Below, one piece after another: positions 15,577-51,909 of a stretch of 64,000 bases of DNA. The notes beneath the pieces were generated by a model. That model was not told the DNA's origin and did not search any database. It was given only the letters and a program-made list of their open reading frames with translations. The translations under genes and the position numbers were made by a program. Positions within the stretch are counted from its first letter, which is position 1. Each line of letters begins with the position of its first letter. The stretch comes from a virus (lineage: Duplodnaviria > Heunggongvirae > Uroviricota > Caudoviricetes). The stretch covers positions 16,273-80,272 of the IMG/VR virus record IMGVR_UViG_3300037400_003300. One strand, given 5' to 3'.

Positions 15577-16735
15577 ATCAATCAAAGTAATGCTACTTCC
15601 TAATAATTTTCAAAAAACAAGGTTTCATCAACACGCGGGAGCAGCAAGATTTCTTTATAACTGGGCACTTGCAAAAGAAGAAGAGAATTACGAAGCAGGC
15701 GGAAAGTTTATTTCTTATTATGAACTTGCAAAAGAGCTTACAGAGATTAAGAAAACAGATGAATATGCATGGCTAAATGATATATCTGCTTGTACTTGTC
15801 AGGCTGCGATTAAAGATGCTTGTGACGCTTATAATAATTTCTTTAAAAAACGAGCCAGGCATCCAAAATTCAAATCAAAGAATAAATCGGCCCCTAGTTT
15901 TGCACAAACAGATCAGGCTATAGAGTTTACTTCTACACATGTTAGACTTAGCAGTTTATCTAAAAGTCTTAAAAGGAATAGAAAAAAACTAAACTGGGTA
16001 AGGCTTGCCGAACATGGCAAGATACCAATAAATGTAAAGCATAGCAATCCAAGGATAACTTTTGATGGCATAAATTGGTGGATTAGTGTAGGAATAGACT
16101 ATCCGGAAAATGATGTTAAATTATCTGAGGAGGGATTAGGTGTTGATCTGGGAATAAGGAACCTTGCTGTATGTTCTGATGATAACATTTATCCTAACAT
16201 CAATAAGACCAAGGCGATCAAAGATTTAGAGAAAAGAAAACGAAGATTGCAACGAAGTATATCCAGGAAATATGAGATGAACAAAAAGGGGGATGAATTT
16301 GTTAAGACAAAAAATATAATAAAAGATGAGAAAAAGTTATTAAAGATGCATCAAAGGTTGAGTAATATCAGGAAAAATTATCTGCATCATACATCCAAAG
16401 AGATTGTCGGAAAGAATCCTAAATTTATTTGCATTGATGATCTTAATATTCAAAGCATGATGAAAAACAAGTATCTTGCAAAAGCTTTTCAAGAACAGTC
16501 TCTTTACGAATTTAGCAGGCAGCTTGAATATAAGAGCAATTTTAAAGGAATTAAATTTATACGAGCAGATAGGGACTATCCATCATCAAAGAAATGTAGC
16601 ATTTGTGGAAGGATAAAGAAGAATTTAAAGCCTTATCAAAAGTTATATAAGTGTGAATGTGGAAATGTAATTGATATTCATAAGCAAGCTGCATTAAATC
16701 TTAAATCTTATGGTGAAGATATTATTGCAGAATAA
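15569..16735 (+). CDS. tnpB: TnpB-like (IS200/IS605 OrfB family) RuvC-fold protein; Cas12/TldR-like candidate
   Basis: OrfB N-terminus; RuvC-I GVDLGIRNLAV (D193); RuvC-II ICIDDLNIQSM (D290 in place of the canonical E); zinc finger CSICG...CECG; RuvC-III region DIHKQAALNL (H371 in place of D). No tnpA nearby. Confidence 0.8.
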   Translation: MIKSIKVMLLPNNFQKTRFHQHAGAARFLYNWALAKEEENYEAGGKFISYYELAKELTEIKKTDEYAWLNDISACTCQAAIKDACDAYNNFFKKRARHPKFKSKNKSAPSFAQTDQAIEFTSTHVRLSSLSKSLKRNRKKLNWVRLAEHGKIPINVKHSNPRITFDGINWWISVGIDYPENDVKLSEEGLGVDLGIRNLAVCSDDNIYPNINKTKAIKDLEKRKRRLQRSISRKYEMNKKGDEFVKTKNIIKDEKKLLKMHQRLSNIRKNYLHHTSKEIVGKNPKFICIDDLNIQSMMKNKYLAKAFQEQSLYEFSRQLEYKSNFKGIKFIRADRDYPSSKKCSICGRIKKNLKPYQKLYKCECGNVIDIHKQAALNLKSYGEDIIAE

Positions 16736-46861: not shown

Positions 46862-48007
46862 ATGGCAGCTGAAAAAAATCTAATCAAAAAAGCCGATCTT
46901 GCTAGAGCAAGAGAAGTCGATTTCGTCTATCGCTTTACCGACAGTATCAATAAGCTTGTTGAAGCTCTTGGTGTAACAAGAAAGGAAAAAAAGGTTGCAG
47001 GTACTTTTCTTAAGGCTTACAAAGCAACCGGAACTCTTCAGGACGGACTTGTAGCAGAAGGTGATCTTATTCCTCTTAGCCACTACAAGACTATACCTGT
47101 TAACTTCGGTGAGATTCCTTTCAAGAAATGGAGAAAGGCTACATCCGCTGAAGCTATTATCGAAAAAGGCTACGAACAGGCTGTAACAATGACAACAGAC
47201 GAGATGCTCAAGGATGCTCAGAAGGGTATCAAGAAGTATTTCTTCAACTTCTTGTCACAGGGCACAGGTCTTGCATCAGGAACAACTTTCCAGTCAACAC
47301 TTGCAGCTATTTGGGGACAGCTTCAGGTACTTTTTGAAGATACAGAGATTGCAGCTGTATACTTCATGAACCCACTTGATGTTGCTGATTATCTTGGAAC
47401 AGCTCAGATCACATTGCAGACAGCTTTCGGTATGTCTTATATCGAGAACTTCCTTGGACTTGGAACAGTTATCCTTAATTCCAATATTCCAAAGGGAACT
47501 ATCTATGGAACTGCTAAGGAAAACATAGTTCTTTACTACATTCCTGTAAATGGTGCTGATCTTGGAGAGGTATTCCAGTTCACATCTGATGAGCTTGGAT
47601 ATATCGGTATCCATGAAACATCTGATTATGACAACATGACAGCAAAAGATACTGTTGTTTCCGGTATCGTTTTGTTTGCTGAGAGAATCGATGGTATTGT
47701 TGTTGGTTTTATCGGTGGTTCTATCACACCTACAATCACAACTGACGTTGATGAGATCACAATTCCTGTTGGCGGAATGGATACAATCCATGCTAAGGTT
47801 GCACCTGCTGGAACATCCTTCACATGGACATCTGATGACACAACAGAAACATATGTTAAGGTTACTCCTGGACTTGACAATGCAGATGTTGTTATCACAG
47901 GTGTTGCAACAACAATTTCCGGTGGAACAGATTCACCCGTTACACTTACATGCACAGCAGGCGGCGTAACAAAGACTGTAACTGTTACTGTTTCAGCTAG
48001 TGCTTGA
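46862..48007 (+). CDS. major capsid protein with C-terminal Ig-like (Big_2-type) domain
   Basis: position and size; the C-terminal ~90 aa is rich in T/V and G, like an Ig-like decoration domain. Confidence 0.55.
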   Translation: MAAEKNLIKKADLARAREVDFVYRFTDSINKLVEALGVTRKEKKVAGTFLKAYKATGTLQDGLVAEGDLIPLSHYKTIPVNFGEIPFKKWRKATSAEAIIEKGYEQAVTMTTDEMLKDAQKGIKKYFFNFLSQGTGLASGTTFQSTLAAIWGQLQVLFEDTEIAAVYFMNPLDVADYLGTAQITLQTAFGMSYIENFLGLGTVILNSNIPKGTIYGTAKENIVLYYIPVNGADLGEVFQFTSDELGYIGIHETSDYDNMTAKDTVVSGIVLFAERIDGIVVGFIGGSITPTITTDVDEITIPVGGMDTIHAKVAPAGTSFTWTSDDTTETYVKVTPGLDNADVVITGVATTISGGTDSPVTLTCTAGGVTKTVTVTVSASA

Positions 48008-48026
48008 TGAAAGAAGGGGAAGGCGT

Positions 48027-48371
48027 ATGCAGTATGAAGTAATTAGATACTTTACTGATGCGCAGGATAACGAGCATGCTTACCGCGAGGGAGATATCTT
48101 CCCTCGCGAGGGGCATACCGTATCAAATGCGCGTATTAGTGATTTGCTTAGTGGAAATAACTTTCAGAGAGTACCTCTTATTAAGCGCGTGACAAACACA
48201 AGCGTTAAGAAAGAGAAGAAGGTTGAGGAAGCTAAGGAATACACAGCAGAGGACATCATGAAAATGCCTTACATGAAGCTCAAATCTCTTGCAAGGCAGA
48301 ATGATGTTGATGTTAAGGACAGGGAAGCTGTTGATATAAGAAATGATCTTATTGAAAAACTGGGGTTGTGA
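48027..48371 (+). CDS. head-tail connector region protein
   Basis: gene order. Confidence 0.35.
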   Translation: MQYEVIRYFTDAQDNEHAYREGDIFPREGHTVSNARISDLLSGNNFQRVPLIKRVTNTSVKKEKKVEEAKEYTAEDIMKMPYMKLKSLARQNDVDVKDREAVDIRNDLIEKLGL

Positions 48372-50128: not shown

Positions 50129-50216
50129 TTTAGCTCAACAGAGCTTTTCATAGATAAAACGAAGAGAGGAGCAATCCTCTTTTTTTTAATGCCATTTATG
50201 GCAGAAAGGAGATAAT

Positions 50217-50702
50217 ATGGCAGTTCAAGAGGCAGGTCTGTCCACATTAGGAGTTAAATTTGGATACGCCGTTGAGACTGTTGCAGGAACACAGCCCGCA
50301 GCATTCATACAGCTTGAAAGATGTAATGCGATTGCTGGTATCGAATTGTCTACTGAGACTATCGATGCCTCAGCTCTTGAAGATTATATCACAAAGTATA
50401 TCGCCGGACGTCAGGATTCAGGCGGTGAGTGGACAATTACATTTAACTACACAGCTGAAGTAGCAACACAGCTTCAGACAATGATCTCAGCTTACAACAC
50501 AGCAAAGGCATCTAACCTTAAGACATGGTTTGAGGTTTGGATTCCTAATGCTACAAATGGATTCTATGTAGTTGCACAGCCCCCTCAGAGACTTCCCATG
50601 CCGGAGTTCTCACAGAATGAGCTTCTGACAATCGAAGTTGGCTTTGCGGTTGAGGATTATAAGGGCGAGCTTACAGCTATCGAGCCAGCAGCGGCGGGGT
50701 AA
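50217..50702 (+). CDS. major tail protein
   Basis: 161 aa immediately upstream of the chaperone pair and tape measure. Confidence 0.65.
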   Translation: MAVQEAGLSTLGVKFGYAVETVAGTQPAAFIQLERCNAIAGIELSTETIDASALEDYITKYIAGRQDSGGEWTITFNYTAEVATQLQTMISAYNTAKASNLKTWFEVWIPNATNGFYVVAQPPQRLPMPEFSQNELLTIEVGFAVEDYKGELTAIEPAAAG

Positions 50703-51034
50703 ATAGCTCTGGTGGAAGTGGCAATCAGAGCGGTAACTCTAGTCAGACCACTGGTTATCTTGATGCAACAGCACTCGGCGCAATGTCTGATTCTGATATC
50801 CTTGCTCTTGCAACAGAGAGAGGTTACACAATAGGAGCAGAATCGGATACTACTGAAGAGATTATCAATGACTTCCTGGACGAGCAGGAACTTAAGTATC
50901 CATTCACTCAGGCAGAACTTGAGGAACTTACAGTTAATGAAATCGAGGCTATTGCATCAGCAAGAGGTTACACGATAACCGAGACACTTAAAGCAGACAT
51001 TATTACTGAGTTTTTGTCTTTGCAAAATGCTTAA
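50663..51034 (+). CDS. -1-frame C-terminal extension of major tail protein (putative frameshift fusion)
   Basis: frame -1 opens at 50663 and overlaps the MTP end. It encodes Gly/Ser linker NSSGGSGNQSGNSSQTTG with no start codon, then two ~30-aa ARGYTI...EFL repeats. GGGG at 50696-50699 lies just before the TAA stop. Confidence 0.5.
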   Translation, partial: GRAYSYRASSGGVNSSGGSGNQSGNSSQTTGYLDATALGAMSDSDILALATERGYTIGAESDTTEEIINDFLDEQELKYPFTQAELEELTVNEIEAIASARGYTITETLKADIITEFLSLQNA

Positions 51035-51100
51035 CGGAACATGGGGCGGCTTTCGGGCTGCCCCTTTCCCTTTAAGCAGATGGGAAAGGAAAAGGATTAT

Positions 51101-51505
51101 ATGAGAACTTTTTTGATTAACGACAAAAGATATGTAGCAAAAGAATTTACTTTCGGCGCAGTAAGACAGCTTGAAGGTTATGGACTTTCGCTTACTGATG
51201 TACAGAATAAGCCAATGACTCTTGCGGCAGCTTACCTTGCATTCTGTGCGAATATCAACATGGATGCAGCTGATAATGAGATCCAGGAGCATGTTATCAA
51301 TGGTGGAAACCTTGATGGTATTTTTGAGGCTGTTACTGAAGCCATGAATGAATCACGTTTTTTTCAGGCGCTCAACAAAAAGGCGGAAGCAGAACAGGAA
51401 GTTCAGAATATTCCGGAAGTTCCAGTAGTTCCGGTAGTACCTCTTCAGGAAATTCCGGTTCAGGCAGTAACAGCAACACAGGTGGGAGAAGCAAGAATAC
51501 AGTAA
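51101..51505 (+). CDS. tail assembly chaperone (gpG-like)
   Basis: position before the tape measure; the -1 partner follows. Confidence 0.6.
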   Translation: MRTFLINDKRYVAKEFTFGAVRQLEGYGLSLTDVQNKPMTLAAAYLAFCANINMDAADNEIQEHVINGGNLDGIFEAVTEAMNESRFFQALNKKAEAEQEVQNIPEVPVVPVVPLQEIPVQAVTATQVGEARIQ

Positions 51506-51909
51506 AATATAAGACTCTTACCGAAGAATATGAGAAAGAACTTTTACCTTCAGTATTGGCAATGGGGTATTCATATTGGGATTTCTGGAATATGAATCCA
51601 AGGATATTAGAGCCAATACTTGAAGGTTATAAACTTAAACGAAAGATAATAGATGAAAATCAATGGCTTATGGGTGGCTATGTTTTTGAAGCGGTCTCTA
51701 TAGCTATAGGAAATATGGCAAAGAAGAAAGGCCAGAAGCCAAATAATTATTTTGAAGAAATAAAAAAGCCAGCGTTGCAGGCAATTAATTCTGATAATGG
51801 AGAATTGACAGAAGAAGAGAAGCAAAGAAGGCTTGATCTTCTCATGGCAGGACTCAGAGTTAAACAGGCAAACTTTGAATTGGCAAAACAGCAAAAGAAG
51901 GGGCAGTGA
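51352..51909 (+). CDS. tail assembly chaperone GT-type -1 frameshift extension
   Basis: T7 slippery site at 51358-51364 lies 6 nt after the -1 frame opens; Ser/Gly-rich linker; canonical G/GT arrangement. Confidence 0.6.
   Translation: MTFFSGAQQKGGSRTGSSEYSGSSSSSGSTSSGNSGSGSNSNTGGRSKNTVKYKTLTEEYEKELLPSVLAMGYSYWDFWNMNPRILEPILEGYKLKRKIIDENQWLMGGYVFEAVSIAIGNMAKKKGQKPNNYFEEIKKPALQAINSDNGELTEEEKQRRLDLLMAGLRVKQANFELAKQQKKGQ

Follow-up and report, generated by a model that had tools for sequence, protein, structure and literature searches.

A probable stop-adjacent -1 frameshift that would append a tandem acidic helical module to the major tail protein of a Caudoviricetes phage

The 64,000-nucleotide (nt) stretch of DNA analyzed here, referred to below as the window, comprises positions 16,273 to 80,272 of the IMG/VR virus record IMGVR_UViG_3300037400_003300, a member of the Caudoviricetes. 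On its + strand, where all of the features described below are located, it carries the gene for a major tail (tube) protein of 161 amino acids (aa) at 50217-50702. With a probability of roughly 0.85, this protein appears to be extended by a -1 ribosomal frameshift at G GGG UAA (50696-50702), directly on its stop codon, into a flexible linker and a tandem module, as judged from the comparison of related sequences. A first-pass annotation, which was made from the sequence of the window alone, had proposed that a -1 frameshift adds a C-terminal domain to the tail protein, and comparative evidence from the slip site, a downstream hairpin and the phase of the module in other phages now supports this proposal.

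The junction and its putative frameshift signal

The tail gene ends in GCG GCG GGG TAA, with the run of four G at 50696-50699 and the stop codon at 50700-50702, and its zero-frame product terminates in ...TAIEPAAAG. The -1 frame opens after a TAA at 50660-50662 and extends from 50663 to 51034 as 123 codons and a closing TAA (51032-51034); as first described, it overlaps the end of the tail gene, by the last 12-13 codons. Neither ATG, GTG nor TTG is present in this frame between 50663 and 50782, near-cognate start codons are also absent by eye, and the first start codon is the ATG at 50783. Read without interruption, the frame gives ...SSGG-V-NSSGGSGNQSGNSSQTTGYLDATALGA-MSDSD..., which agrees with, and is fuller than, the reading GGV-NSSGGSGNQSGNSSQTTGYLDATALGA-M... 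given initially. The arrangement is thus that of an overlapping -1 open reading frame (ORF) without initiation signals of its own, the phase of which is conserved among relatives.

The G run at 50696-50699 holds up as the only plausible slip site, no other slippery heptamer being found by eye within 50663-50702. Among the occurrences of GGGGTAA in the window, only the one at 50696 both terminates a real ORF and leads into a long continuation in the -1 frame. At this position the Gly-tRNA would re-pair perfectly from GGG to GGG, in the P site only. Both GGG (11.6% of Gly codons) and the preceding GCG (15.7% of Ala codons) are minor codons in the phage.

The proposed shift site is a motif kept among relatives of the tail gene: G GGG followed by a stop codon (TAA or TGA) occurs in the window and in the related loci L001-L008, L029-L032, L038 and L107, and the residues that precede it vary. 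In these relatives (IMG/VR contigs and L107), the -1 frame is open across the stop and continues into a linker and two modules, and the first start codon is always the module-internal ATG. Three of them (L004, L029 and L031) have a -1 frame that opens only 3 codons before the stop, so that GGGG is the only slip site shared by all. Lineages with a single module (L033-L037) display C CCC TAA or C CCT TAA at the junction, with the first ATG located 8 codons inside the module, and the junctions of L100 and L103 read G GGG GAA TGA or G GGG GGA TGA. The linker of L007 contains a 15-nt in-frame insertion upstream of the ATG, and that of L100 also differs by in-frame indels upstream of the ATG. A fusion is favored because, apart from two contigs described below without a recognizable slip motif, all module-bearing relatives of the tail protein keep the slip motif, the open frame and the linker, and because the linker indels are multiples of three.

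Two of the related junctions lead into longer or composite -1 products. In L028 (about 2205), a Gly-rich linker, an immunoglobulin-like (Ig-like) repeat and then the module come after C CCC TAA, which gives a longer -1 extension on a tail protein; in L036 (about 2088), G GGG GAA TAA is followed by a domain of ~140 aa without a Pfam hit and then by the module. ORFs that begin with MSSP... were considered as a possible independent start for the linker and were rejected, since their ATG is a GA-AUG-A overlap with the TGA stop behind the same slip site; in these loci the -1 frame is still open upstream of the ATG.

An RNA hairpin at 50706-50731 is a candidate stimulator of the frameshift. Its arms, GCUCUGGU (50706-50713) and AUCAGAGC (50724-50731), form 8 base pairs around a 10-nt loop, beginning 3 nt after the stop codon and 6 nt after the P-site codon, and the hairpin belongs to the minimum-free-energy fold. 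Across 14 distinct sequences 97% of the cells are paired, and three of the eight pairs are altered on both sides in a compensatory manner (C-G/U-A, U-A/G-C and G-C/A-U). When the 3' partner was slid by 1-3 columns, pairing fell to only 21-55%, and the observed pairing or covariation was reached by 1 of 500 shuffles. A run of T was not found after the hairpin, which is therefore not a terminator. Its short spacing from the shift site is that of a stimulatory structure, and its role as such is putative. The linker residues encoded by the arms (SSG/SPG ... NQS/NQG/NSG) are loosely constrained, and the unusually high nucleotide conservation of the linker region is thus plausibly due to RNA pairing. 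A hairpin shared with the capsid-type loci described below was also considered and was dropped, the structures predicted there being heterogeneous.

Several observations weigh against a frameshift. The site G GGG UAA departs from the canonical X XXY YYZ heptamer, and re-pairing would involve the P-site tRNA only. The 101-nt region as a whole folds no better than shuffled sequences (z -0.78), and the RNA-structure support is local, coming from the one hairpin in 14 related sequences. Variable sites in the linker are distributed as 19, 13 and 24 over codon positions 1, 2 and 3, a mild skew that is confounded by the RNA structure. The ATG at 50783 is conserved in the closest relatives, and some internal initiation is possible. 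Moreover, two related contigs (L012/L063 and L020/L048) possess the -1 ORF of linker and module with no recognizable slip site within reach. The junction of L012/L063 (about 3478) reads CCG TCG GTC TAG and that of L020/L048 (about 1628) CCT TCA TAA AAC CCT TAA; L020 resembles a GAA-to-TAA change two codons ahead of a C CCT TAA site.

According to the proposed mechanism, most ribosomes would stop at UAA 50700 and release the 161-aa tube protein of 17.4 kDa. We infer that a fraction would shift by -1, with the Gly-tRNA on GGG 50697-50699 re-pairing with GGG 50696-50698 when the slowly decoded UAA occupies the A site, and that the hairpin, lying at the mRNA entrance 3 nt past the stop, would assist the slip. 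The shifted ribosomes would read GUA (Val, 50699-50701) and then AAU AGC..., giving ...AAAG-VNSS..., and would translate 111 codons of the -1 frame. The resulting fusion, with the junction peptide ...LTAIEPAAAG-VNSSGGSGNQSGNSSQTTGY, is computed to be 272 aa and 29.2 kDa instead of the ~28 kDa first estimated. Its extension, a flexible linker followed by two very acidic modules, would be displayed on a subset of the tube subunits.

The module of the proposed extension and its distribution

The extension begins with a linker of ~19 residues rich in Gly, Ser, Asn and Gln (VNSSGGSGNQSGNSSQTTG, 50699-50755), which exists in the -1 frame only. It is followed by module repeat 1 (YLDATALGAMSDSDILALATERGYTIGAESDTTEEIINDFLDEQ, 50756-50887), the first helix of which is upstream of the annotated ATG, and by repeat 2 (FTQAELEELTVNEIEAIASARGYTITETLKADIITEFLSLQNA, 50903-51031), the most conserved copy. 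The two tandem repeats recognized in the first-pass annotation are thus real, with a unit of ~43-45 aa instead of the ~30 aa assigned to it, and with a first copy that begins before the ATG, at Tyr 50756. For the same reason the 83-aa ORF that had been taken as a complete domain unit is not one, its first helix being encoded ahead of its nominal start. The suggestion that a linker upstream of the nominal ATG betrays a fusion is supported by the in-frame indels and by a fold that starts before the ATG.

For the 111-aa -1 product, AlphaFold2 gives a model with a mean predicted local distance difference test score (pLDDT) of 87: residues 1-20 are predicted to be disordered (about 45-55) and residues 21-111 are predicted with confidence (above 90), and a short helix at residues 23-27 (LDATA) precedes Met29, the residue encoded by ATG 50783. 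The two repeats align as YLDATALGA-M-SDSDILALATERGYTI... with FTQAELEE-L-TVNEIEAIASARGYTI..., and the pattern Y-L-D-x-x-x-L of the first is conserved among relatives. The module consensus is YTQxELExM/LTIxQIxAIAxERGYTITETLKADIIxEFLxQQ. Since the two repeats align at this point, the ATG at 50783-50785, from which the 83-aa ORF was annotated to begin, corresponds to the conserved M/L of the consensus (Leu in L100) and more likely specifies a Met within the module than a start. In repeat 2, 17 of 43 columns are invariant across diverse phages.

The modeled fold is SAP/HeH-like, all-helical and tandem, with the helix-extended loop-helix arrangement over 35-45 aa that characterizes SAP/HeH/Rho_N-like domains. 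Profile matches are short of membership: the module consensus scores 17.5 bits against Pfam Rho_N (PF07498), below the cut-off of 24.9, and its match to DUF7440 is also sub-threshold. The 83-aa ORF scores 30.3 bits against Nif11 (PF07862; cut-off 23.8) through two matches that cover part of the profile (positions 24-45 of 48), and the surroundings of the locus give no hint of a role in nitrogen fixation or as a bacteriocin leader. An Ig-like fold (Big_2, FN3 or I-set) is not indicated, the model being all-helical and matching no Ig family. The extension has an isoelectric point (pI) of 4.05, with 20 Asp and Glu against 4 Lys and Arg in 111 aa; it therefore lacks the basic surface of a nucleic-acid-binding domain, and such binding is unlikely. 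Our guess as to its function, held with low confidence, is weak adhesion or protein-protein contact, in which it may substitute for the Big_2 decorations described below.

A search with the extension only recovers the ~43-aa module also as the C-terminal part of larger proteins, and a scan of IMG/VR with an alignment of the module (A1) yielded 80 viral loci. In 74 of these the module ORF overlaps the stop of an upstream ORF and lies in the -1 frame relative to it, and in the other 6 the module is fused in frame; none of the 80 has a start and ribosome-binding site of its own before the module, which is never free-standing. Two loci that a script had called +1 proved unreal: for L038 a spurious ORF had been picked (the actual junction, GCG GGG TAA, is -1), and L050 is an in-frame fusion. 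The upstream ORFs encode major capsid proteins of SU10, HK97 and P22 type (matching SU10_MCP, Phage_capsid and P22_CoatProtein) and two lineages of phrog_158 tail proteins. The most common motif before the stop in the IMG/VR loci is G GGG GAA, others being G GGG GAG, G GGG GGU, G GGG GGA, G GGA AAC and G GGA AAA as well as the A-type motifs A AAA AAC, A AAA AAA and A AAA AAU; several of these, such as G GGA AAC and A AAA AAC, are canonical X XXY YYZ heptamers. The first start codon of many loci falls within the module, and the module ORFs of L077-L081, L085 and L131 lack an ATG altogether.

Bacterial genomes, scanned independently, contributed 32 loci, mostly in metagenome-assembled genomes (MAGs) of Lachnospiraceae, Clostridia and other Bacillota, together with three mouse-gut isolates (IMSAGC_003, 1XD21-13 and A68_60.CX.DSS). 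The -1 arrangement is present in about 17 of the 32 and the remainder, which includes the three isolates, are in-frame capsid fusions; among cultured strains, the -1 type was not encountered. A +1 arrangement was found in none of the 80 viral or 32 genome loci. Among GenBank phages, a DNA search with the tail gene and extension returned one weak, unannotated hit; no isolate phage in GenBank was found to contain the module, protein-mode searches yielding only three unannotated fecal-phage records, and a literature search found no published description of it.

Two module-bearing entries have unexpected taxonomic labels. L107 (JAFYHY010000081.1) is a near-identical phage contig binned in a MAG of 'Aeriscardovia sp.' from water-buffalo abomasum, and P0121 is labelled Bacteroidales, the other module-bearing genomes being Lachnospiraceae and Clostridia. 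Both bin labels look doubtful for a phage of 36% GC with strong Shine-Dalgarno sites.

At the capsid-type junctions (L042-L137), the sequence C(A/T)GG(G/C)TATA(G/C)C recurs after G GGG GAA TAA in genes of SU10, HK97 and P22 type, and encodes GG-I-T-G-Y-(S/T) in the -1 frame. This suggests that the slip site, stop and linker may travel with the module as one unit.

A different domain occupies the same junction in other members of the tail-protein family. A search with the hypothetical fusion retrieved hundreds of tail proteins of ~160 aa and also proteins of ~240 aa, in which a Big_2 domain directly follows ...TAIEPTA(Q)G. In L009-L011 and L013-L017 (about 3484 or 1891) and in L106 (about 820), the tail gene ends ...GAG CCT ACG GCT TAG GGA..., and the zero-frame continuation past the TAG is a Big_2 domain of 79-81 aa (Pfam E 3e-14). 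The 240-aa homologs (P0038, P0051 and others) had been considered to be in-frame Big_2 fusions, a view that was dropped when the DNA of P0051 was seen to have TAG at the position given as Q in the protein; a true in-frame fusion of tail protein and Big_2 was confirmed for P0033/L139 only. No in-frame TAG was found in genes neighboring the TAG-type Big_2 loci, and these junctions point to programmed readthrough or suppression of TAG. In the window, TAG ends 3 of the 58 ORFs of 100 aa or more, compared to 28 for TGA and 27 for TAA, and no tRNA genes, including suppressors, were found. This avoidance of TAG fits a lineage with leaky or suppressed TAG.

The C-terminus of these tail proteins thus appears to receive a domain in one of three ways, namely fusion, an in-frame TAG or a -1 shift, which supports an outward-facing C-terminus. 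Because a related tail protein carries an in-frame Big_2 at exactly the same junction, the tube C-terminus in the window is, by analogy, most likely directed outward, and the extension would be displayed on the virion.

Alternative explanations and the genomic setting

Four other explanations of the junction were weighed, and even jointly they are unlikely. The least improbable among them, although itself very unlikely, regards the 83-aa ORF as an independent gene that produces a free small protein from ATG 50783, the upstream frame and linker being incidental. This would agree with the retention of that ATG in the closest relatives, with the annotation of such 80-83-aa proteins by gene callers and with the score of the 83-aa sequence alone above the Pfam Nif11 threshold. 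No Shine-Dalgarno sequence is found before the ATG, however (upstream sequence tgatgcaacagcactcggcgca), the codon aligns with a module-internal M/L that is Leu in L100, and the predicted fold starts 9 residues ahead of it, while in many homologous loci the first start is inside the module or an ATG is lacking. An independent gene would also leave unexplained the conserved slip site, the in-frame linker indels and the exclusive -1 phase behind structural genes. Termination-reinitiation, by which ribosomes would resume translation in the -1 frame close to the stop, with linker and modules as a separate protein product, is yet more improbable. The ATG of L100 and L103 overlaps TGA (GA-ATG-A) in a classic coupling arrangement, but it is a by-product of TGA following GAA or GGA; the stop is TAA in the window and in most relatives, no start codon is available in 50663-50782, and in every case the open -1 frame reaches back through the slip site.

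Should the G run contain a sequencing or assembly indel, or be subject to transcriptional slippage, the real mRNA would encode an in-frame fusion. One extra G would indeed join both frames, homopolymers are classic error sites, and polymerase slippage is conceivable in a few related loci with runs of 7 A (L051 and L052). Four G are nevertheless too short for efficient polymerase slippage, and the 4-G run and stop recur in at least a dozen assemblies made independently from different samples, with different motifs at the same place in other lineages; a true fusion would have no use for the stop that is conserved immediately behind the run. We hold this explanation to be as remote as reinitiation, and the same applies to the idea that the downstream frame is the unexpressed, decaying remnant of a former in-frame fusion. 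Two related contigs (L012 and L020) seem to have lost a usable slip site, as would be expected of a remnant, yet the modules are under purifying selection, as reflected in the invariant columns of repeat 2, the frame is intact in every locus and the AlphaFold2 pLDDT is above 90.

The identity of the upstream gene is in keeping with the frameshift-decoration class, in which major capsid or tail proteins are extended. The product of 50217-50702 matches the major tail protein family phrog_158 (E 7e-7) and weakly matches Pfam Phage_TTP_11, PF16460 is present in some of its homologs, and the gene order is capsid, connectors, tail gene, chaperone pair and a tape measure of 1639 aa. A strong Shine-Dalgarno sequence, AAAGGAG, precedes its start. 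A terminator-like hairpin at 51043-51064 is placed directly 3' of the extension ORF, and not after the tail-gene stop, and closes the expression unit of tail gene and extension; an equivalent hairpin follows the Big_2 extension in relatives. Together with a further terminator-like hairpin at 50165-50190 it brackets the tail gene and extension, an arrangement that fits a separately tuned, highly expressed unit.

Downstream of this unit are the genes of the tail assembly chaperone pair G/T (51101-51505 and 51556-51909). The T frame is open from 51352 and lies -1 to that of G, the end of which is at 51505. Their overlap contains no canonical X XXY YYZ heptamer, the sole slippery-looking spot being G GGA at 51484-51487, again of the Gly P-site type. 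In the capsid region, the capsid gene (46862-48007) encodes a C-terminal segment of ~100 aa, beta-rich and additional to the phrog_544 core, with a weak Ig_3 match (E 0.012); the helical module is fused in frame at the equivalent capsid position in L040, L088 and L109. The 123-aa ORF that follows (48000-48371) has an Arc-like N-terminus (phrog_390) and a C-terminal segment that matches DUF7440, the family also weakly matched by the module consensus. The phage may thus carry a second HeH-like element in this ORF.

Relation to known recoding systems and significance

The first-pass annotation had likened the extension to the decorations that are appended by frameshifting to phage tail tubes, and the likeness applies to recoding at the 3' end of a virion gene and not to the domain, which is helical instead of Ig-like. 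C-terminal Ig-like domains appended by frameshifting to major tail and capsid proteins of phages were reportedly described by Fraser et al. (2006, J Mol Biol 359:496). Examples are SPP1 gp17.1*, the head and tail proteins of Lactobacillus phage A2 and T3 10B. Common to that class and to the present family, as proposed here, are a short product and a C-terminally extended one generated by recoding at the very 3' end of the gene, an extension in the form of a small autonomous domain on a linker, the occurrence of one domain both in frame and out of frame, depending on the phage, and the targeting of both capsid and tail tube proteins. The domain described here differs from a beta sandwich in being all-helical, acidic, SAP/HeH/Rho_N-like and tandem, and the out-of-frame cases found here are exclusively -1. 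Ig-like domains of phages are described as encoded in frame, with many incorporated by programmed ribosomal frameshifting (PMC9022992; PMC5009743).

A closer parallel for the site itself is the tail shaft gene (tsh) of the Listeria phages PSA, A118 and A500, where the shift occurs at CCC_UGA, the last codon before the stop (PMC5009743). The system proposed here would share with it the use of the last sense codon, a homopolymeric rare codon with a stop in the A site, re-pairing of the P-site tRNA alone and an extended major tail protein as product. The Listeria shift is +1 on CCC_UGA, whereas the one proposed here is -1 on G_GGG_UAA (C_CCC_UAA in relatives) and is accompanied by a conserved hairpin 3 nt past the stop. 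A -1 frameshift is also reported to yield the tail assembly chaperones G and GT (Xu, Hendrix and Duda 2004). With that system the present one would share a -1 shift near the 3' end of a tail-module gene and a C-terminally extended second product, and some relatives use the same class of heptamer (G GGA AAC and G GGA AAA). It differs in that the site lies at the 3' end of the tube gene, the chaperones having their own pair of genes further on (51101-51909), and in that the product is expected to be a virion component and not a chaperone. Compared to known SAP/HeH/LEM/Rho_N domains (Rho, 1a62; DEK; Ku70; YqbF of a B. subtilis prophage, 2hjq), the module is strongly acidic and its Pfam matches are sub-threshold.

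C-terminal decoration of major virion proteins of phages by recoding is therefore already known. What is new is the acidic tandem SAP/HeH-like module in place of an Ig-like domain, and its breadth over several capsid and tail families in phages of gut and rumen Bacillota, exclusively in the -1 frame when out of frame. Also new are the apparent stop-adjacent, P-site-only -1 shift with a covarying hairpin, for which a literature search on G_GGG_UAA shifting found no published description, and the coexistence within one tail-protein family of extensions that would depend on TAG and on frameshifting.

A broader interpretation, which we advance tentatively as slightly short of an even chance, is that slip site, stop, linker and module constitute a portable recoding cassette, spread by recombination, for the sub-stoichiometric display of a non-Ig domain, and that the tube C-terminus is a general hot spot of recoding. 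If this were true, no fewer than three unrelated capsid families, along with two tail-tube lineages, would have acquired the cassette at their 3' ends in phages of gut and rumen Bacillota, and it would always carry along its own -1 signal, which would explain the lack of +1 cases. Big_2 would then be added at the same junction by programmed TAG readthrough, and recoding would set the number of decorated subunits.

The 'hypothetical proteins' of 80-odd aa that follow tail and capsid genes in numerous contigs of gut and rumen phages are probably the recoded C-termini of main virion proteins and not genes, and in some database entries an in-frame TAG is silently rendered as Gln. Recoding-appended decorations would extend past Ig-like domains to a small acidic helical module that is common in phages of Lachnospiraceae and Clostridia and is not known to have been studied in an isolate. 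The relatives also provide a natural series of -1 signals within a single homologous context, from P-site-only ones (G GGG-stop or C CCC-stop, accompanied by a hairpin) by way of G GGG GAA to canonical heptamers, which is useful for the study of stop-adjacent -1 shifting in Gram-positive hosts. For sub-stoichiometric display on phage particles, sites of this kind are a natural choice.

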